From an archaeon (GTDB lineage: Archaea; Nanobdellota; Nanobdellia; Pacearchaeales; UBA284): 64,000 bases of DNA. Location: assembly GCA_020343435.1 (NCBI GenBank), contig CP070794.1, forward strand, positions 126,413-190,412, read 5' to 3'. The notes beneath the pieces are model-generated. The model had not been told where the DNA came from, made no database searches, and saw nothing but the letters and a program-made list of their open reading frames with translations. Shown one piece after another: positions 3,766 through 23,732 of this stretch. The stretch's first letter is position 1. Each line of letters begins with the position of its first letter. Position numbers and translations under genes: made by a program.

Positions 3766-4353
3766 TTACTTAGCTTTTATCCTCACATCAAATCCAAAAG
3801 TATCGTAAGGGGTTTGGGCTGGCCCTTTTGTAACATCCACCCTAAATCTAACAAGACATAGTGGTGCATCTAAATCTGGTTCAAATCTAATAACTGTATA
3901 ATAAGTATCTCCAGGTCCTAAAGGAATGTTTCTTTCTGATTCTCCAGCAACAATCCAGTATTCTGCATCTGAAGCAGAGATCCCACATTTTTCCATTATC
4001 CTACTATCACTTACCTTTACAGTATAACCATAATCACTCTGTCTTGAACCTATATTCCTTATAGCAAACGCCACACCAAATGCCTCTCCTTGTTTTATTT
4101 CTGCCAATCTATCTGATAAATAAAGTGCTGTTCCTTGGTTATCCTCTGAAAATAATTTATTGATTTCTGCCTTTACTTTTTCGTTCATTGAAAGAACATT
4201 TTCTGTAGCTCCTCCAAAGATTTGTCTTACAAAAACTAATCCTAGAACTAATAAAACAACAGCTATTACTATAATGACCATTGTACTTACAGACATTTCA
4301 AATGCTGCTTTTTTGTTAAGTGATCTTAACTTCATTTTAACATCCAGACACAT
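3766..4353 (-). CDS. Secreted/pilin-like protein with an N-terminal class-III-like signal sequence (start probably internal, MKLRSLNKKA..)
   Basis: ..NKKAAFEMSVSTMVIIVIAVVLLVLGLVFV.. is a basic residue followed by a small residue, a hydrophobic helix and an early Glu. The globular beta-rich remainder resembles minor pilins. Confidence 0.35.
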   Translation of the reverse strand: MCLDVKMKLRSLNKKAAFEMSVSTMVIIVIAVVLLVLGLVFVRQIFGGATENVLSMNEKVKAEINKLFSEDNQGTALYLSDRLAEIKQGEAFGVAFAIRNIGSRQSDYGYTVKVSDSRIMEKCGISASDAEYWIVAGESERNIPLGPGDTYYTVIRFEPDLDAPLCLVRFRVDVTKGPAQTPYDTFGFDVRIKAK

Positions 4354-9366: not shown

Positions 9367-11377
9367 ATTAAAAAACATAAGAAGTTTTGAAGAACAAGAA
9401 TTCAGATTTCCGGAAGGAAGAGTCCTTTTATCAGGGGATATTGGATCAGGAAAATCCACAGTTCTTCTAGGATTAGAATTTGCATTATTTGGATTACAAA
9501 CAGGATTTATAGCAGGAAATGATCTTTTAAGAAAAGGTAAAGATTATGGAGAAGTAGAAGCAGAGTTTGAAATTGATGGAAAACCCATATTTATACAAAG
9601 AAGTCTAAAAAGGAAAAAGAGATCAGTTACTCAAGATAAAGGATTTCTACAAATAGAAGATAAAAAAGAACAATTAAGTCCAGAAGAAATCAAAGCAAGA
9701 GTATTAGAATTAATGAAATATCCAGCCAGTTTACTGAAATCTAAAAGTAATTTGCTGTACAGATTCACATTATATACCCCACAAGAACAAATGAGGTTTA
9801 TTTTACAAGGAAAATCTGATGAGAGACTAAATACATTAAGAAGAATTTTTGGAATTGATAAATATAAGAACATTCTAACAAATTTAGATGTTTTCTCCTC
9901 GAAAATAAAAGAAAAAATAAAACTATTAGATTTACAAATAGAATATTTAGAAAAAGATAAGGAAAAACTAAAAGAAAATCAAGAGAAAATAGATCAAGAG
10001 AAACTAAAAATAGAAAAAATCAAACCATTAATAGAGTTAGTTAATAGAGATATAAAAAGAAAAGAAGAATTATCAGAACAAATAGAAGAAAAAATAAAGA
10101 AAATCAACCAATTAAAAACAGAAAATGCTTCTTTCAAAGCTGAACAATCCTCAACATTAAGACATTTAGAAGATATTAAGAAACAGATAGAAAATATTCA
10201 AGATCAAGAAGAAATAAAAATAGAAGATAAGAACTACCAACAAGAATTAGAAAAAATAAGTAAGGAACTAGAAGCATTATCTCAAAAATCAAAAGAATTA
10301 TTACTAAAAAAAGTTGAGAATAAAACTAAAAGAGAAGATTTCAAAGAAACTCATGAAAAAATCTCTTCTTTAAACATATGCCCAACATGTAAACAGCAAG
10401 TATCTGAAGATTATAAACAAAGATTTGGAGAGGATATCAAATTAAAAATAGAGGCTATAGCAAAAAACATTCAAAACCTAGATTCTCAAGAATTTGAAAT
10501 AAACACTAAAATAGAAAATATGAAATTAGATTTAAATAAATTAAGAGAAGAGGAAAAGAAAAATGCTGTAATAAAAGAAAAAGCTAAGTTCATAGAGGAA
10601 CAAAGGAAAAGAAAAACTAAACTTTTAGAAAATATGAATGAAATAACAAAAAGACAAGAGGATATTCTAAAGAACTTAAAAGAAAATGAAGAACAACTAA
10701 ACAAATTCTCAGATGTAGAACAAGCATATGAAGTTCTAAAACAAGAATTATCATCGTTAAAACAACAAGAAAGAGATTTTGCAATAGAAAAAGGAAGAGT
10801 TGAAAAAGAAATAGAATCTCTAACTAAAAGAATTGAAGAAATTAATAAAGAAATAATAAAAAAAGAAAAAATATACGATAGATCTAAAGAATTAAGAAAA
10901 ACAAATGAATGGATTTTAGATCATTTAACTCCTTTAATCTTAAAAATTGAAAAAAATGTTATGTTAGCAGTAAATATAGAGTTCAATAAGATGTTTAGTT
11001 CATGGTTCTCAATGTTAGCAGAGAACTTAACAGCTAGAATCAGTGAAGATTTTACACCAATAATAGAACAACAGGGTTATGAGATAAGTTATGAGGCATT
11101 AAGTGGAGGAGAAAGAACTGCAGCAGCACTAGCTTATAGATTAGCTCTAAATCAAATAATAAACAGTTTAATGTCCAAATTATCAACAAAAGGAATTCTT
11201 ATATTGGATGAACCAACAGATGGATTCTCGTCAGAACAGTTAGATAAAATGAAAGATATTCTTAACCAAATTGAAGTAAATCAATTATTATTAGTAAGCC
11301 ATGAAACTAAGATAGAGGATTTTGTTGAAAATATAATAAAATTCAGAAAAGAAAACGGAACTAGTTATATAAATTGA
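9347..11377 (+). CDS. rad50: DNA repair ATPase Rad50 (SMC-like)
   Basis: Walker A LSGDIGSGKST; long coiled coil; zinc-hook CPTC at nt 10379-10390; C-terminal signature LSGGERTAAALAYRLAL and Walker B ILILDEPT. Confidence 0.9.
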   Translation: MKLKKIRLKNIRSFEEQEFRFPEGRVLLSGDIGSGKSTVLLGLEFALFGLQTGFIAGNDLLRKGKDYGEVEAEFEIDGKPIFIQRSLKRKKRSVTQDKGFLQIEDKKEQLSPEEIKARVLELMKYPASLLKSKSNLLYRFTLYTPQEQMRFILQGKSDERLNTLRRIFGIDKYKNILTNLDVFSSKIKEKIKLLDLQIEYLEKDKEKLKENQEKIDQEKLKIEKIKPLIELVNRDIKRKEELSEQIEEKIKKINQLKTENASFKAEQSSTLRHLEDIKKQIENIQDQEEIKIEDKNYQQELEKISKELEALSQKSKELLLKKVENKTKREDFKETHEKISSLNICPTCKQQVSEDYKQRFGEDIKLKIEAIAKNIQNLDSQEFEINTKIENMKLDLNKLREEEKKNAVIKEKAKFIEEQRKRKTKLLENMNEITKRQEDILKNLKENEEQLNKFSDVEQAYEVLKQELSSLKQQERDFAIEKGRVEKEIESLTKRIEEINKEIIKKEKIYDRSKELRKTNEWILDHLTPLILKIEKNVMLAVNIEFNKMFSSWFSMLAENLTARISEDFTPIIEQQGYEISYEALSGGERTAAALAYRLALNQIINSLMSKLSTKGILILDEPTDGFSSEQLDKMKDILNQIEVNQLLLVSHETKIEDFVENIIKFRKENGTSYIN

Positions 11378-12444
11378 AGACAAGCTCCAGATGCTGGGGG
11401 AATATGATAAGTTTCATTAGCTTCTACAAAAGTCATCTCAAGCCAAGAAGGAACTTTATTTGTTGCATCTACAATTTTAACCTCCGAATCCTCAGAACTA
11501 AAGTAAGAATGATCAACAAGACTTTTACCAGGCATTAAAGTACGCCCAACTTTAACCCCATGTATTATGCTCTCAATACCAGATTCTGTATCTTGAGCAT
11601 CAAACTGGCCTTTTAATCTACTTAGATAATTTGGGGCATTGGGACTATATGCATAAAATGAACTAGTATAATCAGGTTCCTGAGCACCATCTGCCCATGT
11701 TCTTTCTAAATGCATGCTTAAATTAGTTCCATTACAAGTTCCAGTACTATTATTAACAAAAGATGTATATGGTGTTCTTTTGATTAAACTAACAACATCT
11801 CTTCCAAATTCTCTGGTATAGAAAGGATCTTCTAAATTATATAATGGAATTTTTCCTTCTACAACAGCATATCTGTCCCATACAGCATTAAGTTCATCAT
11901 CTTCAATAACATAGTGAAGAGTAACATTCATATCAATTGCCCATGGAGTAGATTGACCTATGCTCACCCCAATATCATCTATATCTAAATCCCGGAATTC
12001 TAAATTAATCCCTTGTTTACTTGCTCTATCTATGATACTCCCCTGCCAATCCGCTAGAGTCATCCCTTCTAGAAATCTGGAGCCATCATAACCTTCAATA
12101 ATAAGTTCTCCATTGATAAAAGCATCTTTAAAAACCACATCATAGTCCACACTCAAAGGGATATAATCCTCTGCTGAAGAAATATAATCTAATAATCCTA
12201 AAACAGTCCTATATCCTGAAATATAAATTGCTCTTTCAGCATCTTTTTCTACAGACTCTACAAAACTATTTGTGGTTAGAACTCTGGTTCTAATTGATTC
12301 TTTAGTATACTCTCTTCTGTAAGAAAAAGAAACTAATAATAATAGAGTTATAAGAAAAAGAACTGTTAAAGTAAAGAAAAATGCTTTTTTATTTTTCATA
12401 AATTTTTTATTTTTCATTTTATCTCCAAGCCATTGTTTTTGCAA
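11365..12444 (-). CDS. Pilin-like protein with class III signal peptide (KKA|FFFTLTVLFLITLLLL), 359 aa
   Basis: The N-terminus resembles the FFTLDALFA motif of the upstream adhesin. It overlaps the 1239-aa gene, so it is the last gene of the pilin operon. Confidence 0.5.
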   Translation of the reverse strand: MQKQWLGDKMKNKKFMKNKKAFFFTLTVLFLITLLLLVSFSYRREYTKESIRTRVLTTNSFVESVEKDAERAIYISGYRTVLGLLDYISSAEDYIPLSVDYDVVFKDAFINGELIIEGYDGSRFLEGMTLADWQGSIIDRASKQGINLEFRDLDIDDIGVSIGQSTPWAIDMNVTLHYVIEDDELNAVWDRYAVVEGKIPLYNLEDPFYTREFGRDVVSLIKRTPYTSFVNNSTGTCNGTNLSMHLERTWADGAQEPDYTSSFYAYSPNAPNYLSRLKGQFDAQDTESGIESIIHGVKVGRTLMPGKSLVDHSYFSSEDSEVKIVDATNKVPSWLEMTFVEANETYHIPPASGACLQFI

Positions 12445-15400
12445 TGGTGAAATGTAAAAAAGGAATTCCTGGAACTAAAACAGCATTAATTCCTAACTCT
12501 GTATTGAATTGGATGTCAGACATATTATTCTTAGGATTCTGATCAAGAATGTCATTTAAAAGGTTAAAAACTGCGACATCATAAGCTTCATCTTCATCAT
12601 ATTTTATGTTTGGAGGCCCCAAAGTTTTTGAAAAAGTACAGGTCTCTGTAGGATTTGTACCTGCAGGAACTGCTAATTCAAAAGTTCCTCCAGGAAGATC
12701 AGGATTTGAAGGATCTTGATATTGGATAGTCCATATACAACCCTCTCCAACCTTATTTACAGCCCCGCTATATGAAAAAGTTGGAGGAATAAATAATGTA
12801 TAAATTATCTTACTTGAATCATCTGGAGGAGTTTCATTATATGAACTATTTGTTCCAAAAACTAAACCAACTTCATTTACAGTGGGCCCTTTTGAAATTC
12901 TTTCTACAGGAATATTAATTGTGAAAGGATCTCCTAATGTGATATATGTTTCATTCCATTTAGTTAAATTAAAGAAAGTTAAGTTATGTGTTGTGTTTTG
13001 TATAAAAGATTCTCTGCTCCATAAGTCTCCAGAATAGGAGATAACTGATGCTTCAAAAGGATCTCCAGTTGCAAAAGTAAAACTATCCATCCCTCCTGAG
13101 AAACCATCTGTTTCATAACTTATAAGATCCCCAAAAAGAGAGTTTCCATCAGTATCCCAACCATTATCCTCAAAATCATAACCAAAAGTTACTGTACCAT
13201 TACTAAGATTAGATTTTGCACTTCCTATTACAATGATAACTGATTGATTAGCATAAGTAAGTCTCAAGATTTCTTGTGCCCACTCTCTAAAAATTATCCT
13301 TAGTTCTGAAGCATTATTACTCAAGAAATAATCTCCCTCTCCTTCTTCAGCAATTCTCATCATTAAATCTTGAGCAATAGGACAGAAGGCTATTGGACCA
13401 AATCCAACAGCATATATTGTTGCATTAGCTGTGTTATGGCCCCTAGTTGCTTCACTTATAGATTGATCTATTGACTTTTGATTTACCCAGTCCCCACATA
13501 TCATTAACCAAGAAGAAGCTGAAGAAGAGTAATAATGACTATAAAATCCTTGGGTGTGAGAATTTGTAATTCCTGAAATAATGTACCATTTATTCTCTAT
13601 TAAATTATAAGCTAAATCTGGTGAAGGCCCTTGTCCTCCAGGAGCATCACTTAAATCTAAACCAAAAGCAATAGTATCAGTTCTTGTCCAACCTGTTCCA
13701 TTCCAGAAGAAACCATAATAATCACTACCACTAGATCCAGTAACTAATTCCCATTCTCCTGTACCAGTAATATTAAATCCAGTTGTTGGAGCACTATTAG
13801 TTCCAATATCTCCTGGAGGGGCTAAAGAATCGTCTCTTTCCCAACCTGTTCCATTCCAGAAGAAACTAGCAAAAGAACCATCATCCATCCCAGAAATAAG
13901 CACCCATTTTCCATTACCTGTAAGATTAAAAACAACAGTGGGATCAGCTTGAGTCCTTGAGGCTATAGTTAAACCACCAACCAAGGTAGAATTTGAAACC
14001 CAACTATCACCATCCCAAGAAAATCCTGCAAAACTACCGTTATACAAACCAAAGATCAAATCATGTTTATTAGTCCCAGAAAATTCATATAATAATTCTG
14101 GGGCAGGGTAAGTATTTGAACCTAAGTTAGACAAACCACTTATAACAGATGGTGTAAGGACCCATCTTAATCCATTCCACTCATGACCATAAACATTACC
14201 TGCTTTATCTCCTACAACCAGATTCCACTTTCCATTTCCTCTTAAGTCATAAGTAACAGCAACTTTTGCAGATTGGCCACTTGTTATCTGAGCAACACGA
14301 TCATGACAACCAACACCACAATCAACCCCCTCACAAAAATCATCATCGGGACATCTCTCAGAAATACATCCTGGATCAACACGATCAATATCTGTTTCAT
14401 TACAATGAACATTTGTTAAACCATCTGCTAAAACTAAAATAAAACTTGGTCTATCTTGTTCTTCAGGAGGTCTTGCTTCCAACATCAATCTTGCTTTTCT
14501 CAAACCTGCACAAACAGGAGTATCCCCACCAGTTGCATAACCATTAAGATCACTTACAAGAGTTACATTATTATTAGTGAGTCCTGTAGAATACTGGATA
14601 ACGTTTGGAGTTGTTGCTCCCCCTGGAGTTGAACCAGGTCTTGCGCTATATCCAACCAGTCCAACTCTATTCTCAGAATGTTCTAAAAGTATATTTAAGA
14701 ACTCTATAGCCAAACATTTTGCAACATTTAATCTCCTTCTTCCTGGAAGAAAGATTGGATTATCAGGATCTGAAAGATTGCCACACGCTATATTTTGATC
14801 TCCATTTTTATAGTCTTTGTCCATCCTCCATATCATACTACCAGAAACATCCATAACAACAATTACGTCTGCTGGTCCCCTGCCCCCAATTTGTGCTTCT
14901 ATTTCTTCTATTCCCACTCTAAAAGGAACATTTTCTTTGCTAATATCTAAATAAGTTATACCTTGTTCTGATAAAAGTTTACTTGAGATAGTAGAATTAG
15001 TTATTTGTACAGAATTATATCCTTTTTTATTTCCCCTTTCATCTCTCCATACAGTAACATTTCCTATCTTTACAAAAGGAGTTGTATTCTCTTCCTGCTC
15101 ATATTCTAAATTAATAACCACGTTTGTTAAATTCCCAGGAATGTAGAAAGAATCATAGATATTCATAGATCCATTAATAAATGGAAGATATTTTGTTTCT
15201 GGTAACAAGTATGAAACGCTTCCAGTAGTATATTTTATTTTTAAGAAACCTCCAGCAATGTAAAGAGATCTATTATACGTTGTTGTATTAAATTTGATTT
15301 CATTAATCCCCCCATTAAAATAAGGGTCAATAGGATCTGGAAATTGCCCCCCATCTAAAGAGATAGGACAATGTTTACATGTAGATGGAGAAAAGGTTTC

Positions 15401-16138
15401 AGGGAACAAACGATCATTTACAGATATTTGAAAAGTGTCTCCCATGATCACTCCCTCAAAAGATAAAGAAGTTACATTGATATCCAAAGGTAAATCAAAT
15501 CTTTGAGTTATGTTTCCATCTCCAACATATCCCCCAAAATAAACATATTTTGTTTTCTCTGGTCTATAAAGATAAGCTCTTGAAGAATAACCTTTAACAG
15601 GTTGTTCATAAGCAATCCCACTCATATGTTTTTTAGCAGCAACTACATCTCTTGAATTTGCAAAAGGAATATTGCTTTTAGACCATATTTCAATTAAAAC
15701 AGTTCCAGAAGGGTCTGGAGCTTCAAAATAAAGACCAATATTGTCTTCTTCTGTTGTTATGCTATCAAAAAAACTTTCAGTGATCTCTCCACTAATATTA
15801 TTTGCAGGGGTTTGACCATAATGGGTCGCCCAAATTTTACCAATTGTATCTATTAGATTATCTTTATCTTCCAAAATCTCTATTCGAACAGAATTATTTA
15901 ATTGAGAAATGTTTCCATTTATTAAAGAATTGTTTATACTTACTGTATTGAGATTTGAGAGAAGAGTCAACATATCTTCTTGTAAATAAGAGGTTCTATG
16001 TTTTTCAGGAACATCTCCAACATATGCAAAAGGAACTAAGATAATCACAGATAACAAGATTACCAAAGCAAAAAGAGCATCCAGAGTAAAAAAATACCCC
16101 CTCTTTTGTTTTAGTTTTTTCATTTTAAGCTTTTTCAA
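12419..16138 (-). CDS. Giant pilin-anchored adhesin with class III signal peptide, a vWA domain carrying a complete MIDAS, and FG-GAP-like beta-propeller repeats (integrin-like)
   Basis: N-terminus KRG|YFFTLDALFALVILLSVIIL. vWA: ADVIVVMDVSGSM (DxSxS), ..GGDT.., ..LVLADGLTN... Four repeats of G(N/D)GKW.L..G...G.F..F.WNGTGW (aa about 630-830). Many N-x-S/T sequons. Confidence 0.7.
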   Translation of the reverse strand: MKKLKMKKLKQKRGYFFTLDALFALVILLSVIILVPFAYVGDVPEKHRTSYLQEDMLTLLSNLNTVSINNSLINGNISQLNNSVRIEILEDKDNLIDTIGKIWATHYGQTPANNISGEITESFFDSITTEEDNIGLYFEAPDPSGTVLIEIWSKSNIPFANSRDVVAAKKHMSGIAYEQPVKGYSSRAYLYRPEKTKYVYFGGYVGDGNITQRFDLPLDINVTSLSFEGVIMGDTFQISVNDRLFPETFSPSTCKHCPISLDGGQFPDPIDPYFNGGINEIKFNTTTYNRSLYIAGGFLKIKYTTGSVSYLLPETKYLPFINGSMNIYDSFYIPGNLTNVVINLEYEQEENTTPFVKIGNVTVWRDERGNKKGYNSVQITNSTISSKLLSEQGITYLDISKENVPFRVGIEEIEAQIGGRGPADVIVVMDVSGSMIWRMDKDYKNGDQNIACGNLSDPDNPIFLPGRRRLNVAKCLAIEFLNILLEHSENRVGLVGYSARPGSTPGGATTPNVIQYSTGLTNNNVTLVSDLNGYATGGDTPVCAGLRKARLMLEARPPEEQDRPSFILVLADGLTNVHCNETDIDRVDPGCISERCPDDDFCEGVDCGVGCHDRVAQITSGQSAKVAVTYDLRGNGKWNLVVGDKAGNVYGHEWNGLRWVLTPSVISGLSNLGSNTYPAPELLYEFSGTNKHDLIFGLYNGSFAGFSWDGDSWVSNSTLVGGLTIASRTQADPTVVFNLTGNGKWVLISGMDDGSFASFFWNGTGWERDDSLAPPGDIGTNSAPTTGFNITGTGEWELVTGSSGSDYYGFFWNGTGWTRTDTIAFGLDLSDAPGGQGPSPDLAYNLIENKWYIISGITNSHTQGFYSHYYSSSASSWLMICGDWVNQKSIDQSISEATRGHNTANATIYAVGFGPIAFCPIAQDLMMRIAEEGEGDYFLSNNASELRIIFREWAQEILRLTYANQSVIIVIGSAKSNLSNGTVTFGYDFEDNGWDTDGNSLFGDLISYETDGFSGGMDSFTFATGDPFEASVISYSGDLWSRESFIQNTTHNLTFFNLTKWNETYITLGDPFTINIPVERISKGPTVNEVGLVFGTNSSYNETPPDDSSKIIYTLFIPPTFSYSGAVNKVGEGCIWTIQYQDPSNPDLPGGTFELAVPAGTNPTETCTFSKTLGPPNIKYDEDEAYDVAVFNLLNDILDQNPKNNMSDIQFNTELGINAVLVPGIPFLHFTIAKTMAWR

Positions 16139-16718
16139 AAGACCATAAATAAATAACCATCCTTAAAGGAATGGTAATGTTACTTTCATTCTTATAAGCA
16201 ACTAAACGTTCTATTTTAACAAGTTGTGTTGGATTCTTACCTTGTATTGTATTTCCTGCTCCAGAACAACCCCCAGGATCTGGAATTAATCTTGGAACCG
16301 GGGGGTCACTATAAAAATCCTCCATATTATCAAAAAATTGTATGAAAAAAGATGATTGGGTTCCAAACTTTTCTTTAACACCTGAATAATAGTTTTCGCT
16401 CCAATCACAAAATTTTGTCCATTTCGCTGGATCCAATGTATTATCAGTAATTAATCCAAATTGATAAATATCTTCAAGGTTCTCTGGACTAAGCGTAATT
16501 TCTTCCCATCCTGGAGGGGTCCCATTAATTAATAGAGAATTTGATATATATCTTCCTTCTCTCACCATCCTACTAACAATGTTTTGTTCAGGAACAAAAC
16601 TTACAGAATAACGATAGAAAAGAAAAATAATCATAACAAAAACCATTAGACCAATAGCTAAGTCAAGAGCCCAAACTTGAGCTTTTTTATTTTTTCTTGA
16701 GAGATTTAAGTTTGGCAA
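16125..16718 (-). CDS. Pilin-like protein (class III signal peptide KKA|QVWALDLAIGLMVFVMIIF)
   Basis: 197 aa; basic N-terminus, small residue, then Q and a hydrophobic helix. It overlaps neighbours on both sides. Confidence 0.5.
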   Translation of the reverse strand: MPNLNLSRKNKKAQVWALDLAIGLMVFVMIIFLFYRYSVSFVPEQNIVSRMVREGRYISNSLLINGTPPGWEEITLSPENLEDIYQFGLITDNTLDPAKWTKFCDWSENYYSGVKEKFGTQSSFFIQFFDNMEDFYSDPPVPRLIPDPGGCSGAGNTIQGKNPTQLVKIERLVAYKNESNITIPLRMVIYLWSFEKA

Positions 16719-17140
16719 TCTAATTTTAATTCCTCCTGTTCTCCAGCTTCTCTAATCTTTTCTATAGTAACTGTTCCCCCTGGAATAAGAGGTTCCACAT
16801 CATTAATATAAGGTGTTCCTCTCGACGCTGTGAATTTAGTTTCACTCCCTCTTAAAGTTTTAACTACAAAACCATATCCAGAATCAGACATTAAGATAGA
16901 ATACTCTTTTCCAGTAATTTTTTTAGGTAATGTAAACTCTCTAGAATAATTTGGAGGGGATCCCGAAGCTAAAGTTATTTCTTGTTGTAGAAAATTTGCA
17001 AAATCATTTAAAGATTCTTGTTCATTTTTCTCTCTTGCTAAAGAAGTATTAAAATTAGCTGAAGCAATCATTATTACTACTAAAAAAATAACTGCTGAGA
17101 CTAATAATGTGAATTCAATTGTTACTTGTCCTTTTTTCAT
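16706..17140 (-). CDS. Type IV pilin (archaeal, Q-x-S/T-x-E-F class; KKG|QVTIEFTLLVSAVIFLVV)
   Basis: The QxTxEF motif after KG is characteristic of EppA/PibD-processed archaeal pilins (DUF361-like). 144 aa. Confidence 0.65.
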   Translation of the reverse strand: MKKGQVTIEFTLLVSAVIFLVVIMIASANFNTSLAREKNEQESLNDFANFLQQEITLASGSPPNYSREFTLPKKITGKEYSILMSDSGYGFVVKTLRGSETKFTASRGTPYINDVEPLIPGGTVTIEKIREAGEQEELKLDCQT

Positions 17141-17141
17141 T

Positions 17142-17600
17142 TTATTGATTTGTTTTGGTTACCTCAACATAAATCCCATTAGAATCATTCTTTGCTTCCA
17201 AAGTCAGAGTCTTAAAACCTGCCTTAGATAAACTGGTTTGGACACCCCCTCCATCCTCTATTCTTCCTTGAGTATCATAAATCATATCTGATCTCGCTGT
17301 TCCTTTGATAGTAACTTTAAAATGGATGCCAAAAGGGGAAGTATCTAGAAACTCTACACTATAAACGCTCTCAGGAATAGTTACTTGAATTGTTGCCTTA
17401 GAAGGAGGACCTAAAAAGTAAATTGAATCGGCAGCTTCAGCAATTTTTTTTCCAGCTTTATCAACAGTATTGACTTTTATTTGAGTTTTTGCTGTTCCAG
17501 AATAATAGTAAGCGATACCTATTATGGCTATTAAAAGGAAAGTAATAAAACCAATAAGTAAAGCGAACTCTACACTTACCTGACCTCTTTTTTTTCTCAT
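17142..17600 (-). CDS. Type IV pilin (archaeal; RG|QVSVEFALLIGFITFLLIAII), probable major pilin
   Basis: Canonical class III signal peptide with Q+1, S+3, E+5, F+6. It is the first gene of the operon and 152 aa long. Confidence 0.7.
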   Translation of the reverse strand: MRKKRGQVSVEFALLIGFITFLLIAIIGIAYYYSGTAKTQIKVNTVDKAGKKIAEAADSIYFLGPPSKATIQVTIPESVYSVEFLDTSPFGIHFKVTIKGTARSDMIYDTQGRIEDGGGVQTSLSKAGFKTLTLEAKNDSNGIYVEVTKTNQ

Positions 17601-17682: not shown

Positions 17683-19293
17683 ATGGATTACCAAAAGAAA
17701 CTGAAAAAAAAGTATGGTGAAACATATCTTCGGGAAGTATTCAATGAGAGAGTCACAAAAATTTTAATTTTAGAAACATATAGGGGAACTATTTTTATTG
17801 AACTTTTCCATAAAGATATCCCTTTGATTAAAGATGTTATCTCTAGTGTTCTTTTGGGGGAACTTGATGGGATGGTATTTTACAATTGTAATCCTTACTT
17901 CTTACAATTAAGAAAAAGTGCTGAAGAAAAAAAGATGTCTGATAGGATTCTTAGACCCTACTTACAAAACATAAAGGGAACTGTTGGTTTGGTAAGTTCG
18001 AAAAGAAATGCACAGAAATCTTTACTAGATCATTTTTACATTTGTTTATCTGATGTTCCTGAAATCGATGGAGAATATACTATAATTGGAAAGGTGGTTC
18101 GTGGTTTTGATATTTTAACTAAGGTATGGAATGGTAATACTATAAGAAGAGCATACATAGAAAAAGGATTTGTTGGAAAAGAACCAACAATTAAGAGGTT
18201 GGGAGCACTATACTGGGTTGGTTTAGCAACAATTTTATTTTATGCGTTCTGGTTATTATCAAGAAATCTTGTTTCATTACAAAATTTCCAAAAATCTATT
18301 TTTGGAAGTGTTTTTACAGAAACGCTATCCAAAGGAAACGCGATATTTATTCTGATAGTGGGAATAATTCTGATAATCTTTGCTTTAACAGTAAGTGGAT
18401 TAAGTGCGAGAGTGAAAGTTGGAGAAACACCAACAGCCCTAAAAGAGAGAGACGAAGAGAAAAAGATGTTGATGAAAGTTAGAGAAAAGAGATTAAAGAT
18501 GATGGAGACGTTGAGAAAGAAAGAAAAAAGTAAAACCCCGGTTTTTAAGAAAGAAGTTAGAGAGGAAGATAAAGGAGGAAAAAGACTGGAAAAAGAGAAA
18601 AGAGAGATTGAAGAACTTAGAAAGAAGTTAGAGAGAGAAAAGAAAGAATTTGAGGAGCGTCTTAGAAAACAAAAAGTTCCTTCAAAAGCAGAATTAAGAG
18701 AATTAAGTAAAGGAAAGGAGGAAAAAGAGAGATTAAAGAAGGAGAGATTAAGACTAAGAGAAATAAAAGCTAAAAGAAAAGCTAAGGAAGAAGAGAAAAA
18801 GAGGAGAGAAGAAGAAAAGATTAAGATAAGAGAGGCTAAGATAAGAGAAAAGAAAGCTAGAGAAAAGGCAAGAGAAGACGCTAAGAAAAAAGCAGAGGAA
18901 GAAAGACAGAAGATTAAAGAGGCTAAGATAAGAGAAAAGAAAGAAAGGATTAAGAAGACTGTGAAAGAAAAGAATAAAGAAGAACAGAAAGAGAGGAAAA
19001 AGATGGTACAAGTAATGGAAAAACACATAGATACTAAAAAAGAGATTAAAAAGAAACTAAAAGAAGAAATTAAAAGAGAAGTATTACCAAGAATTGCTCA
19101 AAAAACTGAGACACAATTAGATATTTTATATGATCTTTTAGAAAAATATAAAACACTAAAATTAGATTATATTATGAAAACATTTGAGATTAGTAAAGAA
19201 GAAGCAATAGAGTGGTGTAATATTCTTGTTGAAAATGGTCTTGCTGAATTAAAATATCCTGCATTTGGAGAGCCCCTTTTAATTAAAAAATGA
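17683..19293 (+). CDS. Fusion protein: N-terminal cyclophilin-type PPIase-like domain, 2 TM helices, about 220-aa E/R/K-rich predicted single alpha-helix/coiled-coil region, and a C-terminal winged-helix-like domain
   Basis: TYRGTIFIELFHKDIPL.. and ..GEYTIIGKVVRGFDILTKV resemble cyclophilin motifs (..HvVFGkV.eGmdVv.ki). TM helices at aa about 172-195 and 220-240. Highly charged repeats (EKKAREKAREDAKKKAEEERQKIKEAKIREKK) from nt about 18430 to 19090. C-terminus ..LDILYDLLEKYKTLKLDYIMKTFEISKEEAIEWCNILVENGLAEL. Confidence 0.5.
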   Translation: MDYQKKLKKKYGETYLREVFNERVTKILILETYRGTIFIELFHKDIPLIKDVISSVLLGELDGMVFYNCNPYFLQLRKSAEEKKMSDRILRPYLQNIKGTVGLVSSKRNAQKSLLDHFYICLSDVPEIDGEYTIIGKVVRGFDILTKVWNGNTIRRAYIEKGFVGKEPTIKRLGALYWVGLATILFYAFWLLSRNLVSLQNFQKSIFGSVFTETLSKGNAIFILIVGIILIIFALTVSGLSARVKVGETPTALKERDEEKKMLMKVREKRLKMMETLRKKEKSKTPVFKKEVREEDKGGKRLEKEKREIEELRKKLEREKKEFEERLRKQKVPSKAELRELSKGKEEKERLKKERLRLREIKAKRKAKEEEKKRREEEKIKIREAKIREKKAREKAREDAKKKAEEERQKIKEAKIREKKERIKKTVKEKNKEEQKERKKMVQVMEKHIDTKKEIKKKLKEEIKREVLPRIAQKTETQLDILYDLLEKYKTLKLDYIMKTFEISKEEAIEWCNILVENGLAELKYPAFGEPLLIKK

Positions 19294-21083
19294 AAAAAAG
19301 AAAGATAAAATCAAGGACCAAGAAAAAAAAAGTGAAGAAAAGAAAAAAGTCTTTCCATGCTCTCTCTGTTCCAAAACCAACTTGGAAAAAACCAATAAAA
19401 GAAACACATGATAAACTTGGTTTTCCAAGTAAAACTGTAGAAATAAAAAAAGTGGGTTCTGTAGTGACAACCCCACAGACAGAAAAAGACAAAAAATTGG
19501 GTTTACCAACAAAGACAGATAAAGAAGAGATACAAGAAATAAAAACCAAGATCAAGGAAAGAATTCAAGTTCATGGAAAGATCATAAAAACATATGATAT
19601 TGATTCTAATAATGTTAAGGTAAAGATATCTATATTAGATACAGAAAAAGGACTATTCTACCAAATAAAAATTCCAGAAATATCTCGTCCAACTCGGGCA
19701 CTTTTAGAGAACATAAAACAAAAATTAATAGGCACTATTGAAATGGGGGCTTCTGAGATAACAGATATTAATGCTATAGAAAAACTAAAACAAAAATTAA
19801 TATCTCGTTCAAAAGACTTATTACAAAGATTCAAATCATCTAGGGATAACATAACTCTTTTAACAAGTATTCTAATTAATGAGATGTTGGGGTTAGGCAA
19901 TATAGAACTTTTAGTTGCAGATCCCCATTTAGAAGAAATAGTTATAGCATCTGCACAAGAACCTGTAAGAGTTTATCATAAAGAATTTGGTTGGTTGCCA
20001 ACGAACATTTATTTAGAAAACGAAAAACAAACTGAAAATTACTCTGCTATAATTGCAAGGCGTGTTGGAAGACAAATTACAACCCTAACTCCAATGTTGG
20101 ATGCTCACCTTGTAACTGGTGATCGTGTAAATGCTGTTTTATATCCTATATGTACAAGAGGGAATACAATAACAATTAGGAAATTTGCAAGAGAACCATG
20201 GACCATTGTGGATTTCATTAATAATAAGACTTGCAGTGCAGACGTTTTTGCGATGATATGGATGGCAATACAATATGAAATGAACATTCTATTTTCTGGT
20301 GGAACAGCCTCTGGAAAAACAACTATGTTGAACGTCTGCACTCCTTTCTTCCCAGCAAATCATAGAATTCTAAGTATTGAAGATACTAGAGAGTTGCAGT
20401 TACCAGAACACTTGTATTGGTCTCCATTAACAACAAGGTTACCAAATCCTGAAGGAAAGGGAGCAGTTACAATGTTGGATCTATTGGTTAATAGTTTAAG
20501 AATGAGGCCAGATAGGATAATTCTTGGAGAGGTAAGAAAACACGAAACAGCAGAAGTACTTTTTGAGGCAATGCATACTGGTCATAGTGTTTATTCTACA
20601 GTTCACGCAAATACATCTTCAGAAACAGTTGCTAGATTAGTAAATCCCCCAATTAGCATTCCTCCAAACTTGTTGAAAGCAGTAGACCTTAATGTTGTAA
20701 TGTTTAGAGAGAGGAGAAGAGGAATAAGAAGAGTCTTTCAATTAACAGAACTAATTCCAGATGAAACTGATAAAAACGGAGTAAAGCCAAATATCCTTTA
20801 TAGATGGGAACCAAGTTCAGATAAGATTATATCTCATGCTTCAACTTTAAGATTCTTTGAAGATATGTCAAGACATACTGGAATGAGTTTTTCTCAGATT
20901 AATAAAGATCTAAAAGAAAAAAAAGAATTTATAGAACATCTTGTGAAAAACAACATCAGAGAGATGAATAGTATAGGAAAAATGATTCAGGATTTCTATC
21001 TTAAAAAAGGAATAAAAGATATAAAAACCAAAAAACCTTCTAAAATTAAGAAAATTAAAAAGAAAAAGAGAAAAAAGAGGTAA
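19290..21083 (+). CDS. Type IV pilus / archaellum-type assembly ATPase (FlaI/ArlI-PilB-GspE-VirB11 superfamily)
   Basis: Walker A FSGGTASGKTTMLN, Asp/Glu boxes (..ILSIEDTRELQL..), His box (..ILGEVRKHE..) and a Lys-rich N-terminal extension. Its start overlaps the upstream gene. Confidence 0.85.
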   Translation: MKKRKIKSRTKKKKVKKRKKSFHALSVPKPTWKKPIKETHDKLGFPSKTVEIKKVGSVVTTPQTEKDKKLGLPTKTDKEEIQEIKTKIKERIQVHGKIIKTYDIDSNNVKVKISILDTEKGLFYQIKIPEISRPTRALLENIKQKLIGTIEMGASEITDINAIEKLKQKLISRSKDLLQRFKSSRDNITLLTSILINEMLGLGNIELLVADPHLEEIVIASAQEPVRVYHKEFGWLPTNIYLENEKQTENYSAIIARRVGRQITTLTPMLDAHLVTGDRVNAVLYPICTRGNTITIRKFAREPWTIVDFINNKTCSADVFAMIWMAIQYEMNILFSGGTASGKTTMLNVCTPFFPANHRILSIEDTRELQLPEHLYWSPLTTRLPNPEGKGAVTMLDLLVNSLRMRPDRIILGEVRKHETAEVLFEAMHTGHSVYSTVHANTSSETVARLVNPPISIPPNLLKAVDLNVVMFRERRRGIRRVFQLTELIPDETDKNGVKPNILYRWEPSSDKIISHASTLRFFEDMSRHTGMSFSQINKDLKEKKEFIEHLVKNNIREMNSIGKMIQDFYLKKGIKDIKTKKPSKIKKIKKKKRKKR

Positions 21084-21085
21084 AA

Positions 21086-21967
21086 ATGAAGTTAAGAATT
21101 CCATTTTCTTTTTATCCGCCAAAATTTTTGTATAGGTTCTCAAATGCTTTTCTATCAGTTGGTAAAAAGATGGTTTCTAAAAATAAGAATATGGAGCTAT
21201 ACTTCTCACAATCAGATTTCCCAATAAAACCTGAAAGATATATTGCTGCTTCTATTGCATCAACAATTCTTAATTTAATTATTTTCAGTTTAATCTTTAT
21301 AATAATTTTCAGAGCAGGAGGATCAAATCCTCTTTTTGGATTGCTTATCGGCATAGTAGTTGCAGGGTTCATGTATATGCAGCAATTAAATTATCCTAAG
21401 ATGATAATTTCTAAACGTATAAGAAACATTAATGTTAATATTCTTCCAGCAATCAGAGCTTTAATGATTCAATTAAATGCTGGAATTACATTCTTTAATG
21501 CTTTAAAAAATATAGCAAAAGGAAATTATGGAGTAATTTCAGAAGAATTCCAAAAAGCAATAAACTCTATGGAAGCTGGAGTTCCTGCAGTTGAAGCTCT
21601 TGAAAAAATTTCTAGAAACAATCCTTCGCTCTTCTTCAGAAGAGCTATTTGGCAGATAATAACTGGAATCCAAGTTGGAGCAGATATTTCAATAGTTCTT
21701 AAGGAAATTGTTCATTCATTAGTACAAGAACAAATGACAGAGATACAAGCATATGGAGGGAGGTTGTCTCCATTAGCTATGTTTTATATGGTTATCTCAA
21801 TTATATTCCCAGCATTAGGGATAACATTTTTGATGATATTATCTACATTTATACAAGGTCTTGGACAAAATTACCAGTTGATACTTTTCGGAATATTAGC
21901 ATTAGTTATTTTATTCCAGTTTATATTTTTGGGAATGATAAAATCAAGGAGGCCGCCACTGATATAA
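21086..21967 (+). CDS. Pilus assembly polytopic membrane protein, TadB/TadC (T2SS-F/FlaJ-like) half 1
   Basis: 293 aa with multiple TM segments and a cytoplasmic helical domain (..ALMIQLNAGITFFNALKNIAKG..) typical of the GspF/TadC repeat. It lies directly downstream of the ATPase. Confidence 0.65.
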   Translation: MKLRIPFSFYPPKFLYRFSNAFLSVGKKMVSKNKNMELYFSQSDFPIKPERYIAASIASTILNLIIFSLIFIIIFRAGGSNPLFGLLIGIVVAGFMYMQQLNYPKMIISKRIRNINVNILPAIRALMIQLNAGITFFNALKNIAKGNYGVISEEFQKAINSMEAGVPAVEALEKISRNNPSLFFRRAIWQIITGIQVGADISIVLKEIVHSLVQEQMTEIQAYGGRLSPLAMFYMVISIIFPALGITFLMILSTFIQGLGQNYQLILFGILALVILFQFIFLGMIKSRRPPLI

Positions 21968-21968
21968 A

Positions 21969-22934
21969 ATGAGATTATTTGCAAGATTTTCACCAAAGTT
22001 CACAGAAAAGATAGAAAAGCTAGTAGAATATGCTAATGTTAAAAAGAATCCTAGAGAACTTGCAGGGATGATTATTTTCATAAGTCTAGTAATTGCTGTA
22101 GTTGCGTTTGTAGCATTATTCTTGTTTGTTGGGTGGATATACTCCATTCCAGTAGCAGTTGTAATTTATTTTGTGGTTCCATTAATCTTCCAGTTAATGC
22201 TTGTTCTAAAAGCAGATAAAAGAGCTTCCCAAGCAGAAGAAGCACTACCAGATGCTTTGCAATTAATGGCAACAAACTTGAGAGCAGGATTAACAACAGA
22301 TAAAGCACTTTTAGTTTCAGCAAGAGAAGAGTTTGGGGTACTTAATGAAGAATTTAAGCGGGTTGCAAAAGAGATTGCTGTGGGAAAAGAGATAACAGAG
22401 TCATTAAAAAGAATGTCAGAAAGAATACATTCAGATCTTGTAGAAAGAACTTTAAGTCTAATAATTTTTGGAATAATTTCTGGAGGAGAATTAGCATCAT
22501 TACTCGAAGAATCTGCTGCAAGCCTAAGACAACAAAGTCTAACAAGAAAACAAATTCATGCAAGTGTCTTAATGTATACTATTTTCATAATTGTTGCAGT
22601 GGCAGCTATTTCTCCTCTACTCTTTGGATTAAGTTCTGTTCTTACAGAAACTATGCAAGAAACTATTGGATCTATAGAAGCTCCGCCTCCAGAAGTTACT
22701 TCTCAGGTTCCATTATCCATCTCGCCAGTAGACATAGATGTTGGTTTGATAAGGATATTTATAATAATACTATTAGTAGTAAGTGCTATCCTAAGTTCTC
22801 TGGTTTTAGGACTAATATCTAAAGGTAATGAAAAAGCGGGATTAAAATATATACCAATATTAATGATAATCTCTTTAGTGGTGTTCTTTGTAGTAAGAAC
22901 TGGAATTGTAAAACTTCTGGAGATGTTTTTCTAG
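21969..22934 (+). CDS. Pilus assembly polytopic membrane protein, TadC/FlaJ-like half 2
   Basis: 321 aa; a second GspF-like repeat (..LQLMATNLRAGLTTDKALLVSAREEFGVLNEEFKRVAKEIAVGKEITESLKRMSER..). Together with the previous gene it equals a split FlaJ. Confidence 0.65.
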   Translation: MRLFARFSPKFTEKIEKLVEYANVKKNPRELAGMIIFISLVIAVVAFVALFLFVGWIYSIPVAVVIYFVVPLIFQLMLVLKADKRASQAEEALPDALQLMATNLRAGLTTDKALLVSAREEFGVLNEEFKRVAKEIAVGKEITESLKRMSERIHSDLVERTLSLIIFGIISGGELASLLEESAASLRQQSLTRKQIHASVLMYTIFIIVAVAAISPLLFGLSSVLTETMQETIGSIEAPPPEVTSQVPLSISPVDIDVGLIRIFIIILLVVSAILSSLVLGLISKGNEKAGLKYIPILMIISLVVFFVVRTGIVKLLEMFF

Positions 22935-22973: not shown

Positions 22974-23732
22974 ATGGTAAAAAAGAAAAAAGGGGTAAAG
23001 AAGAAAGTTAAGAAGATAATTAAAAAAAATGAAAAGATAGAAACAGGGATCCCGGCTTTTGATAAGATTAGTAAGGGGGGATTTAATGAAGAATCTGTTA
23101 ATTTAATTGTTGGTGGAGCTGGAGCTGGTAAAACTATTTTTTCTATAAAATTCTTAATGGAAGGAATGATCAAAGGAGAAACTTGTCTGTACATTACTTT
23201 TGAGGAAAAGAAAGATGAATTATATAAGAACATGCTGTCTTTTGGATGGGATTTAGCAGATTATGAAAAAAAAGGTAAGTTTATCTTTGTGGAATATACT
23301 CCTGAGAAAGTTAGAAAAATGCTTCAAGAAGGTGGGGGGGCTTTAGAAAGTCTTATGTACAGTAAAAAAATAAGTAGGCTTGTGATAGATAGTGTAACTT
23401 CCTTTACCCTACTTTTTGAAGGGGAATTGGCAAAAAGAGAGGCAGCTCTTTCATTATTTGATATGACTAGAAGATGGAAAACAACTGTATTACTAACGTC
23501 AGAAAGAGAATTAACAAAAAAAGATTTAACATCTGGGACAAGTTCAGCTCTAGAATTCGAAGCAGATTCTATAATATTACTTTATTTCTTAAGAGAGGGC
23601 GGGGAAAGAAAGAGGTTGATAGAAGTCCTTAAAATGAGAGGAACCCAACACTCTAAAAGCCTTTATCCTTTTCAAATAACTAGTAAGGGTGTTGAGATAA
23701 GTAGTAAAGCTAAGAAAATAAATCTAAAATAA
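22974..23732 (+). CDS. KaiC/RecA-superfamily ATPase, FlaH(ArlH)-like
   Basis: GIPAFDKISKGGFNEESVNLIVGGAGAGKT (Walker A) and ..LYITFEE.. match the KaiC-like domain. The 252-aa single domain and position next to the pilus ATPase and membrane genes mirror FlaH. Confidence 0.7.
   Translation: MVKKKKGVKKKVKKIIKKNEKIETGIPAFDKISKGGFNEESVNLIVGGAGAGKTIFSIKFLMEGMIKGETCLYITFEEKKDELYKNMLSFGWDLADYEKKGKFIFVEYTPEKVRKMLQEGGGALESLMYSKKISRLVIDSVTSFTLLFEGELAKREAALSLFDMTRRWKTTVLLTSERELTKKDLTSGTSSALEFEADSIILLYFLREGGERKRLIEVLKMRGTQHSKSLYPFQITSKGVEISSKAKKINLK

Follow-up and report, generated by a model that had tools for sequence, protein, structure and literature searches.

The tips of several bacterial pili carry adhesins with von Willebrand factor A (vWA) domains. 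In bacterial type IVa pili, PilY1/PilC combines a vWA domain with a beta-propeller, and serves as a tip adhesin and mechanosensor assembled with minor pilins. In CpaL/TadG, a minor pilin of the Tad pilus, a beta-rich insert interrupts the vWA domain; the protein is predicted to lie at the pilus tip together with two minor pilins, and TadG has been recovered in fibre preparations (PMC11870444). The S. sanguinis pilin PilB is exposed at the tip and acts as a vWA adhesin (PMC8179133), together with two further minor pilins, one of which bears a lectin (PMC8179133, PMC9934059). It is believed that Tad itself arose from the Epd system of archaea, and DPANN archaea have system 1, with its split platform (10.64898/2026.04.22.720090). 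According to the same 2026 preprint, loci for type IV filaments in archaea, DPANN included, encode adhesin-like proteins and an adhesin resembling PilY (10.64898/2026.04.22.720090), and the Epd/system 1 cluster is reported to contain adhesin-like and galactose-binding class III proteins (10.64898/2026.04.22.720090; PMC2910488).

Here we analyse a locus from a 64,000-nucleotide stretch of archaeal DNA (hereafter, the window), which a first-pass annotation had described as a pilin operon with an integrin-like adhesin of a kind that it had not seen described. PilB, CpaL/TadG and PilY1 contradict the claim of novelty: the concept of a vWA-bearing minor pilin is not new, and bacteria have close equivalents. 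In the literature, we found no description of a vWA-bearing minor pilin in archaea.

Gene content and conservation of the locus

Five consecutive, tightly packed minus-strand ORFs occupy positions 11365-17600, where the first-pass annotation had placed the operon, with gaps or overlaps between genes of at most 14 nt, a spacing typical of operons. Genes 1 (17142..17600; 152 aa) and 2 (16706..17140; 144 aa) encode small pilins that are candidate filament subunits. Gene 3 (16125..16718; 197 aa) encodes a pilin-like protein and candidate minor pilin, while the pilin-like product of gene 5 (11365..12417; 350 aa) is a candidate minor pilin or first subunit. Between them, as judged from its ORF, deposited protein and models, gene 4 (12419..16123) encodes a modular putative vWA adhesin of 1234 aa with a class-III-like N-terminus. 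The length of 1239 aa given earlier holds for the maximal ORF (12419-16138, from the first TTG at 16138) but not for the likely protein, since the deposited NCBI protein, ‘VWA domain-containing protein [archaeon]’, to which gene 4 is identical (100%), starts at the ATG at 16123. Gene 5 likewise has a longer ORF (11365-12444) than its NCBI protein, which starts at 12417.

Back to back with the operon lie genes for the ATPase of a type IV filament, a platform protein in two parts and an ATPase of the KaiC-like kind. The reading as a pilin-type operon attached to a type IV filament machine is supported. The divergently transcribed machinery operon, on the plus strand, begins with a gene for a membrane protein (17683..19293; 49/82 related loci) comprising a cyclophilin-type PPIase domain (Pfam Pro_isomerase, E 8e-12) and a K/E-rich coiled coil. 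The FlaI/TadA-like filament assembly ATPase (19290..21083; 55/82 loci) was identified through Pfam T2SSE (E 1.4e-36), with NCBIfam matches to FlaI (6.6e-87) and the TadA family (7.8e-52) that both fall under their cut-offs. Two adjoining platform genes (21086..22934, comprising 21086-21967 and 21969-22934; 55/82 and 56/82 loci) each match Pfam T2SSF (E ~1e-16), resemble a split TadB/TadC, and show weak NCBIfam matches to UpsF and ArlJ. Also encoded is a KaiC/ArlH-like single-domain ATPase (22974..23732; 37/82 loci), matching NCBIfam KaiC (3.6e-46) and ArlH (1.8e-16), both under cut-off. Overall, linkage of the pilin operon to T2SSE/T2SSF genes was observed at ~55 of the 82 related loci, a set that includes many truncated contigs. 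A candidate processing enzyme, an A24 prepilin/preflagellin peptidase (54248..55114, plus strand; Pfam Peptidase_A24, E 4.1e-15), is FlaK/PibD-like in size and has both catalytic Asp motifs (TD26IKKR and GGGD88). It counts against assignment to a pilus that this enzyme, the only one of its kind in the window, lies outside the cluster at a distance of 37 kb, and that its match to NCBIfam FlaK (4.5e-15) is under cut-off.

At least 255 species-level genomes have the five-gene set, and nearly all of them carry a DPANN label; that the relatives of the organism are DPANN archaea agrees with the small archaeon of the first-pass annotation. The set that recurs in MAGs of Pacearchaeota, Woesearchaeota, Nanoarchaeota and Aenigmatarchaeota consists of two QxSxE pilins, gene 3, the vWA protein, gene 5, a divergent ATPase, two T2SSF proteins and often KaiC, and its gene order, pilins and machinery together, is kept across phylum-level distances. 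By gene content (ATPase, two-gene platform and DUF361-type pilins), the locus corresponds to Epd-like system 1 as defined previously (10.64898/2026.04.22.720090). It shares with the Epd pilus of Methanococcus maripaludis the split platform genes, DUF361-type QxSxExxxL pilins and multiple minor pilins, but differs in having its peptidase outside the cluster and in its vWA pilin, which has not been reported for Epd.

N-terminal leaders of the five products

All five products start with K-[KR]-[G/A/S] followed directly by a hydrophobic helix, and their N-termini (genes 1 to 5, with a slash before position +1: MRKKRG/QVSVEFALL, MKKG/QVTIEFTLL, KKA/QVWALDLAI, KRG/YFFTLDALFA and KKA/FFFTLTVLF) read as they had been quoted. 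Each thus displays the class III feature of a short basic leader, K/R and then G/A/S, and a helix of ~20 residues at the extreme N-terminus. Among orthologues from the 82 related loci, anchored by a rule that fixes K/R at -2 and leaves -1 free, we found G, A or S at -1 in 50/57 distinct sequences for gene 1 (88%), 53/59 for gene 2 (90%), 64/68 for gene 3 (94%), 67/68 for gene 4 (99%; G or A in each of these) and 58/59 for gene 5 (98%). The same pattern of leader and helix was present in 120/120 vWA relatives among the matches listed.

Genes 1 and 2 carry the QxSxExxxL motif of DUF361/EppA substrates, which bears out the view that two members have the canonical archaeal motif. Both score below the 23.7-bit cut-off of Pfam Class_IIIsignal (PF04021, formerly DUF361), at 17.4 and 20.9 bits, respectively; the sequence logo of gene 1 has Q at +1 and E at +5. 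They are paralogues of one another (hhalign probability 97%), with orthologues at 61/82 (gene 1) and 62/82 (gene 2) related loci, and gene 1 additionally has a weak match to Pfam TadE (E 0.0024).

For genes 3-5, the QxSxExxxL motif is absent and no class III signal or pilin profile was matched in Pfam or NCBIfam. Gene 3 (69/82 related loci) has Q at +1, W at +3 and D at +6, the last in 63/68 sequences; gene 5 (61/82 loci) lacks an acidic residue. The position of the acidic residue in genes 3 and 4, at +6 and not +5, counts against a pilus, as does the absence of profile matches for genes 3-5. Neither gene 3 nor gene 5 belongs to a family in Pfam or NCBIfam, and every homologue of gene 3 is named ‘hypothetical protein’. 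The suggestion that these three members share a distinct N-terminus is correct in so far as they form conserved, distinct N-terminal classes; hhalign comparisons of the three show a common stretch confined to the first 20-35 residues, after which the likeness ends.

Architecture of the vWA protein and its known counterparts

Gene 4 (features below are on the minus strand, with residues numbered along the ORF) opens with its basic leader and hydrophobic helix (16025..16123; residues 6-38). An AF2 model of the N-terminal fragment contains a helix at residues 14-33, and the motif [KR][GA]/[YFVI]FF[ST]xDAL[IL]A is conserved in the family. There follows a region comprising an N-terminal helical subdomain and beta jelly-roll domains (15002..15985; residues ~52-379), in which the domain after the helix is a predicted CBM-like (carbohydrate-binding-module-like) jelly roll; a pilin fold, with the helix packed on a beta-sheet or Ig-like head, was not found in the predicted structure after the helix. 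This N-domain starts no more than ~50 residues from the protein start in nearly all of 150 matches listed, from a total of 527 representative clusters. The vWA domain reaches curated profile thresholds, adopts a Rossmann-like fold in the models, and is encoded in two parts, the first of which (14402..14932) holds an intact MIDAS motif, DxSxS...T...D (D430-x-S432-x-S434, T540 and D572), whose columns are invariant or at least 90% conserved in an alignment of 120 relatives. The second part (13247..13486; ATIYAVGFGP...) was delimited from the alignment and the secondary structure of the model. Among solved structures, the vWA domain is closest to two pilus-tip adhesins, Mfa5 and PilB of S. sanguinis, the latter a minor pilin. 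Finally, a conserved C-terminal beta-sandwich region (12422..13213; residues ~976-1239; pLDDT ~85-95) is kept in short and long family members alike and matched no Pfam family.

An insert composed of a Cys-rich loop and propeller-type repeats (13487..14401), delineated from sequence repeats, AF2 and Foldseek, separates the two parts of the vWA domain; it lies between the beta strand with D572, which it follows immediately, and the next vWA helix. Five repeats of ~52 aa are visible in the sequence; AF2 modelled four four-stranded blades (pLDDT ~60-87) and left the fifth repeat disordered, and the low confidence of the propeller model in places (pLDDT 40-87) counts against the pilus proposal. 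Foldseek matched the insert to 5- to 7-bladed propellers (GH62, AAL, PLL and LGI1; E ~1e-5), and no FG-GAP or VCBS profile matched gene 4, even at E <= 10. Inserts of >300 aa at the same site occur in only 22 of the 120 close relatives, and only some of these are propeller-type. Modules at this site vary among relatives, from propellers to a ConA-like lectin and CARDB; such variable, binding-type modules fit diversifying external recognition and not a housekeeping anchor. The proposed combination of a pilin-type N-terminus, a vWA domain and a propeller-type module is supported. AlphaFold and Foldseek recovered the expected vWA and propeller-type folds, but the propeller lacks the FG-GAP signature that had been anticipated.

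The earlier comparison with an integrin alpha/beta head fared less well. Gene 4 resembles that head in placing a MIDAS vWA domain beside a beta-propeller, and integrin chains are among its fold matches. However, its propeller lies inside the vWA domain, a nesting opposite to that of integrin alpha-I, with five repeats instead of seven, in a single chain and as an optional insert in the family. With neither seven FG-GAP repeats nor an alpha-I-in-propeller or separate-chain layout, an integrin-type FG-GAP head was rejected, and the comparison is an analogy only. Inserted ‘arms’ on a vWA-MIDAS domain at a fibre tip are also a feature of Mfa5 (type V pili) and of SpaC, RrgA, GBS104 and PitA (sortase pili), whose assembly by strand exchange or sortase is unrelated; the adhesin module is common to these proteins and gene 4, the carrier is not. 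We also rejected gene 4 as a PilY1/PilC protein. PilY1 is not a pilin; its signal is of the Sec type and it docks on minor pilins through a C-terminal propeller of PilY1 type, whereas gene 4 has a propeller nested in its vWA domain and its own pilin-like, class-III-like leader, and matched no PilY1/Neisseria_PilC profile.

Closer parallels are offered by PilB and CpaL/TadG. In PilB (PDB 7b7p/7ba2), as in gene 4, a carrier with a class III signal is joined to an adhesin module of the MIDAS vWA type, but PilB is a bimodular protein of 50 kDa with a canonical bacterial pilin module (IPR012902) and E at +5. It lacks the propeller insert and the CBM-like and C-terminal domains of gene 4, and the match between the two proteins is confined to the vWA part. 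The likeness to CpaL/TadG of Caulobacter and Aggregatibacter, judged from the published description (PMC11870444) and from profiles, extends from the protein to the locus: a prepilin-like leader and helix precede a MIDAS vWA domain that a beta-rich insertion interrupts, the locus also encodes two more products like minor pilins as well as small pilins of the Flp/TadE type, and a TadA-like ATPase and split TadB/TadC platform are present, as in Tad. For both proteins the predicted role lies at the tip or in priming (PMC11870444). Gene 4 itself matched neither Pfam TadE nor Tad at E <= 0.1, the weak TadE match of gene 1 being the only one. Furthermore, in place of the lollipop pilin module of CpaL, gene 4 has its helical subdomain and CBM-like jelly roll, and in place of an insert of two beta-barrels it has a propeller-type insert after the MIDAS Asp strand. 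Gene 4 is also twice the size of CpaL, with an extra conserved C-terminal region, and belongs to an archaeal host without a secretin.

A candidate tip adhesin and alternative readings

We consider it reasonably likely, with a probability of about 0.6, that an archaeal type IV filament system of the Epd/Tad-like kind has its structural half in this region, with gene 4 presented at the tip as an adhesin. The machinery half would be the FlaI/TadA-like ATPase, the split platform protein and the KaiC-like ATPase. In this proposal, each of the five proteins would lose its short basic leader to the A24 peptidase, with cleavage following the G/A at -1, and genes 1 and/or 2, as QxSxE-type pilins with E at +5, would polymerise into the shaft. 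Genes 3, 4 and 5, whose leaders are conserved but whose mature N-termini are unusual, with D at +6 or without an acidic residue, may be incorporated as a priming complex, which would end at the distal tip because it assembles first. Tip placement would point the ~130-kDa gene 4 protein outward, where the metal ion in the MIDAS of its vWA domain may bind a carboxylate of the ligand and so mediate adhesion, while the propeller-type insert beside the MIDAS face and the CBM-like jelly roll could add or tune specificity. On a host cell or substratum, the probable targets are glycans or surface proteins.

Alternatively, the adhesin might be displayed on the cell surface without a long pilus, with the type IV machinery and the peptidase processing genes 3-5 and building them into a short pseudopilus or membrane-proximal raft comparable to the bindosome of Sulfolobus, in which class III signal peptides are found on binding proteins. 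Consistent with this, gene 4 is very large for a filament subunit and has no recognisable pilin fold after its helix, the ATPase has a sub-threshold match to the bindosome ATPase BasE (2.2e-43), and archaeal class III signals also occur on non-pilin surface proteins such as sugar-binding proteins (PMC2910488). We nonetheless regard surface display as rather unlikely, given that two canonical Epd-type pilins are invariably co-encoded upstream, that in structure the vWA domain is closest to pilus-tip proteins, and that bacterial tips accommodate large modular pilins (PMC8179133, PMC11870444).

It is improbable, in our estimation, that genes 3-5 are retained in the membrane, at the base of the filament, with the vWA domain binding the cell's own envelope or S-layer or regulating assembly. 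Such a role was an early idea for TadG and is the mode of FlaF/FlaG in the archaellum, and the conserved C-terminal beta domains of gene 4, having no assigned function, would leave room for it. Against it stand the highly variable binding modules at the vWA insertion site (propellers, ConA-like lectin, CARDB) and the nature of ArnB-type regulators, which are cytoplasmic and lack an N-terminal helix. That class III profiles match none of genes 3-5 could also mean that their N-termini are ordinary uncleaved signal anchors or Sec signals, on co-regulated surface proteins outside the type IV machinery. We think this very improbable: a plain anchor needs no near-invariant small residue at -1, preceded by K/R, at the start of its helix, yet that residue is found in 94-99% of orthologues of three unrelated families. 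Moreover, no A-x-A type cleavage region follows the helix in genes 3-5, and the order of these genes with the pilins and machinery is conserved over phylum-level distances.

On the preferred reading of a filament with gene 4 at its tip, the sequence data make the five-gene operon a good candidate for how DPANN cells grip hosts or surfaces. A bolder extension, which we advance only tentatively and with the odds against it, is that genes 3, 4 and 5 correspond in archaea to the bacterial TadE/TadF/TadG (CpaJ/K/L) tip complex and may be ancestral to it, including a role in DPANN host recognition. If so, a vWA tip adhesin would already have been present in the Epd-like archaeal system ancestral to Tad pili and would be the main host-recognition device of DPANN archaea, and the site beside the MIDAS face would be a swappable specificity cassette, filled by propellers, ConA-like lectins or CARDB, that sets host range.

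Organization of the pilin-type operon and its N-termini

The five consecutive minus-strand genes proposed in the first-pass annotation were recovered by ORF listing at 11365-17600, with no gap or overlap exceeding 14 nt. These comprise gene 1 (17142-17600, 152 aa, N-terminus MRKKRG/QVSVEFALL, the slash marking the predicted cleavage point), gene 2 (16706-17140, 144 aa, MKKG/QVTIEFTLL), gene 3 (16125-16718, 197 aa, ..KNKKA/QVWALDLAI), gene 4 (12419-16138, KQKRG/YFFTLDALFA) and gene 5 (11365-12444, KNKKA/FFFTLTVLF). The length of 1239 aa originally given for gene 4 holds for the maximal open frame but not for the deposited protein; in the database records, both gene 4 and gene 5 begin at ATG codons inside the open frame, yielding proteins of 1234 aa (P0001) and 350 aa (P0121), respectively. 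The source contig (648 kb) belongs to a MAG, the G+C content of the window is 29-36%, and the closest relatives are labelled Candidatus Pacearchaeota. A promoter and terminator scan, relying on bacterial models inapplicable to an archaeon, returned matches at the level of shuffled sequence.

The canonical archaeal class III motif attributed to two members was confirmed for genes 1 and 2, both of which show QxSxExxxL, reported as the motif of EppA substrates (PMC2910488), and match the Pfam Class_IIIsignal model just under threshold; genes 3-5 gave no match to class III signal profiles. For orthologues located by phmmer in related loci, 80 of which were taken from species-representative genomes, the residues flanking the onset of the first hydrophobic segment were then tabulated. 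In all five families K-[KR]-[G/A/S] directly precedes the helix, and G, A or S occupies position -1, which the anchoring rule left unconstrained, in 88, 90, 94, 99 and 98% of distinct sequences for genes 1-5, respectively. Also identified were Q at +1 in genes 1-3, E at +5 in genes 1-2, and D at +6 in genes 3-4. Gene 5 lacks an acidic residue near the start of the helix, and in this it resembles the first-assembled minor pilins GspK and CpaL (PMC11870444). Judged from sequence, the conserved N-termini of the five families are predicted peptidase recognition sites, at which the precursors would be cleaved.

Profile-profile comparison with hhalign identified genes 1 and 2 as paralogues (probability 97%), and confined the mutual likeness of genes 3, 4 and 5 to their first 20-35 residues. 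The proposal that the three atypical N-termini define one subclass is retained for leader and helix, but a single paralogous subfamily was dropped for the remainder of these proteins. Against PDB sequences, genes 1 and 2 found only chance-level matches, e.g. PCNA and Fab chains. Homologue searches returned 7 close relatives of gene 5 and 12 of gene 3, none with an assigned name, while more distant orthologues of both were recovered by phmmer on the related loci. Downstream, a plus-strand Mre11-like and Rad50/SMC-like gene pair (8143-11377) is convergent with the operon, the 3' ends of the Rad50-like gene and gene 5 overlapping by 13 nt (11365-11377). In the related Pacearchaeota locus L001, the five-gene set is followed by a canonical small pilin of 161 aa (15233-15718, MRMSKKG/QAAMEFLMTYGWAIL); the window has no such gene downstream of its operon because the Rad50 gene converges there.

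A vWA domain with a nested, variable insert

AlphaFold2 models were generated for residues 40-1239 of gene 4 from a 120-sequence alignment (A3; mean pLDDT 82) and for its N-terminal 425 residues (pLDDT 86). The predicted order comprises the leader and a 20-residue helix, a linker, a small helical subdomain, beta jelly-roll domains, the vWA domain, and a conserved C-terminal beta region. Identification of the vWA domain, already called in the first-pass annotation, is secure: Pfam VWA_2 matches above threshold, the top Foldseek match is PilB (E 1.3e-7), and a search of PDB sequences with the family profile retrieved Mfa5 (2.6e-14) and PilB (2.4e-13). Furthermore, the MIDAS residues D430-x-S432-x-S434, T540 and D572 are intact, and are conserved in the alignment of relatives. 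Searched as a single sequence against PDB chains, the full-length protein returned only noise, and the insert within the vWA domain, the N-terminal region (N-domain) and the C-terminal region each gave no usable Pfam match at E <= 10. Protein databases name the gene 4 product only as a VWA domain-containing protein.

Following the D572 strand, the chain exits the vWA fold for approximately 330 residues before re-entering to form the remaining helices and strands. This insert contains a Cys-rich loop plus five ~52-residue repeats with the pattern NxTGxGKWxLxxG...GxxWNGxGW, modelled by AlphaFold as four four-stranded blades at moderate confidence with the fifth repeat disordered. Foldseek matched it to the 5-, 6- and 7-bladed propellers GH62, AAL, PLL and LGI1 (E ~1e-5), in agreement with the propeller-type repeats noted initially. 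The expectation of a vWA domain plus an FG-GAP propeller was borne out for the vWA domain and, as a prediction, for the propeller-type fold, but not for FG-GAP, a reading rejected on finding no FG-GAP/VCBS profile match in Pfam at E <= 10. The analogy with an integrin alpha/beta head was likewise abandoned, the topology of gene 4, in which a propeller-type module is nested in a vWA domain, being the inverse of that of integrin alpha-I. Since the strand with the MIDAS residue D572 leads into the insertion loop, the insert should, from general vWA-domain topology, sit beside the ligand-binding face.

The same site is an insertion hot spot within the gene 4 family. Inserts of >300 aa were found there in 22 of the 120 relatives and fall into two or more propeller-like sequence types, one of which has PSII_BNR-like repeats; the other relatives possess just 28-83 residues at this position. 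Distant family members, of up to 2350 aa, bear ConA-like (Laminin_G_3), CARDB, DUF2341 or Reelin-B modules. Among database relatives of ~800 to 2350 aa (P0163, P0218, P0198, P0225, P0050/P0077), the differing modules were ConA-like Laminin_G_3, CARDB, DUF2341, Reelin subrepeat-B or PSII_BNR-like propeller repeats, the alternative module lying between the two vWA halves in P0163 and, by position, in P0198.

Filament machinery and conservation across genomes

Consistent with the initial description of a pilin-type operon, the five genes adjoin a divergently transcribed machinery operon on the plus strand, encoding a cyclophilin-domain membrane protein as its first gene (17683-19293), a T2SSE-family ATPase (19290-21083; best NCBIfam models FlaI and TadA, both sub-threshold), a T2SSF platform split between two genes (21086-21967 and 21969-22934), and a single-domain KaiC/ArlH-like ATPase (22974-23732). 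The Epd-like archaeal type IV filament 'system 1' is typified by such a split platform together with DUF361-type pilins; a 2026 preprint reports it from methanogens and DPANN and connects it with how bacterial Tad pili arose (10.64898/2026.04.22.720090). An A24 prepilin peptidase with both catalytic Asp residues (TD26IKKR, GGGD88) is encoded at 54248-55114 on the plus strand. In the protein from the first gene of the machinery operon, the cyclophilin-type PPIase domain is joined with a membrane segment and an extended K/E-rich coiled coil. Such an accessory is unusual among type IV filament systems, and its gene stays next to the ATPase in 49/82 related loci.

Clustered at 50% identity, the N-domain family has 527 representatives (448 at E <= 1e-10), and of the 150 matches listed nearly all begin within the first ~50 residues of the protein. 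A relative is present in at least 255 species-representative genomes. Across 82 loci, many of them on incomplete contigs, phmmer matched the vWA protein in 73, gene 3 in 69, gene 2 in 62, genes 1 and 5 in 61 each, the ATPase in 55, the platform halves in 55 and 56, the cyclophilin protein in 49 and the KaiC-like ATPase in 37; gene order was identical in every locus inspected gene by gene. The 80 inspected loci carry Pacearchaeota, Woesearchaeota, Nanoarchaeota/Nanoarchaeia, Aenigmatarchaeota or Micrarchaeota labels, with several termed only 'archaeon' and four deposited under non-DPANN labels (L029, L060, L083, L055; three Methanosarcinales and one Elusimicrobia). Because its layout equals that of a Pacearchaeota contig (L057), the Elusimicrobia-labelled contig was probably mis-binned or mislabelled, rather than representing spread beyond DPANN.

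Further possible pilin-like loci were identified on the minus strand of the window. At 24139-26515, a HerA/DUF87-type ATPase (25187-26515) is followed immediately by two small ORFs with class-III-like N-termini (KKG/WLLVIEVVIAV, 122 aa; KKG/VHHVEYVIAV, 229 aa); the ATPase weakly matches the NCBIfam models for HerA and for CedD, a component of the crenarchaeal DNA-import system. This trio, found beside the vWA operon in only 0-1 of 82 loci, is unlinked to it elsewhere and could represent a distinct module of pilin-like or translocation type. A three-gene cluster at 34734-40431, encoding proteins of 275 aa (class-III-like start MYKRG/QTTLFIIIAV), 712 aa (Cys-rich) and 926 aa, none with a Pfam family, may specify a second surface structure or adhesin set. 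At 3766-4353, a lone ORF of 195 aa whose N-terminus is class-III-like (KKA/AFEMSVSTMVIIVIAVV) may specify another pilin, or the major one, at a distance from the machinery.

A candidate tip adhesin and its alternatives

We favor, with a probability of roughly 0.6, an Epd/Tad-like filament whose shaft would be built of gene 1 and/or gene 2, and in which genes 3-5 would form a priming complex that comes to lie at the tip and presents the vWA-MIDAS adhesin, with the adjacent propeller and a CBM-like domain tuning specificity. This mechanism is modelled on knowledge of, or predictions for, PilA/B/C of S. sanguinis (PMC8179133, PMC9934059) and on Caulobacter CpaJ/K/L, the equivalents of TadE/F/G (PMC11870444).

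Three alternatives stay alive, as gene 4 lacks a pilin fold. The same proteins might form a bindosome-like surface display with no long fibre, which we regard as unlikely; a basal anchor or regulatory role appears more doubtful still, and the diversity of the binding-type inserts argues for outward recognition. Least probable is that the N-termini are ordinary signal anchors and the genes merely co-regulated: the K-[KR]-[G/A/S] pattern fits a peptidase site and would be superfluous in a plain membrane anchor.

That a class III carrier can bear a vWA adhesin is already established for bacteria, and PilY1 pairs a vWA domain with a propeller, so the suggestion that such an arrangement had not been described applies only to the DPANN family, of which we found no description in the literature. 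Searches combining DPANN, type IV pili and vWA found no paper, and a Pacearchaeota metaproteome paper does not mention pili. A 2016 census gave archaeal vWA proteins only as cytoplasmic regulators, mentioning TadG as a bacterial case (PMC4858521), and the 2026 preprint described a PilY-like adhesin as well as adhesin-like proteins, without mention of a vWA pilin (10.64898/2026.04.22.720090). Gene 4 is thus a candidate for an archaeal, DPANN-wide, TadG-like tip adhesin, whose carrier domain is not of pilin type and whose vWA domain harbours a nested, variable cassette.

DPANN constitute a large share of archaeal diversity, and cultivated members require physical contact with a host. The locus provides a concrete, broadly conserved candidate for this contact, namely a putative pilus whose tip protein would bear a metal-dependent adhesion site with a variable module beside it. 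If true, the 'modular pilin' principle would reach from bacteria into archaea. The locus is also relevant to the proposed archaeal origin of Tad pili, and is useful for studies of DPANN-host biology and of Tad/Epd evolution.
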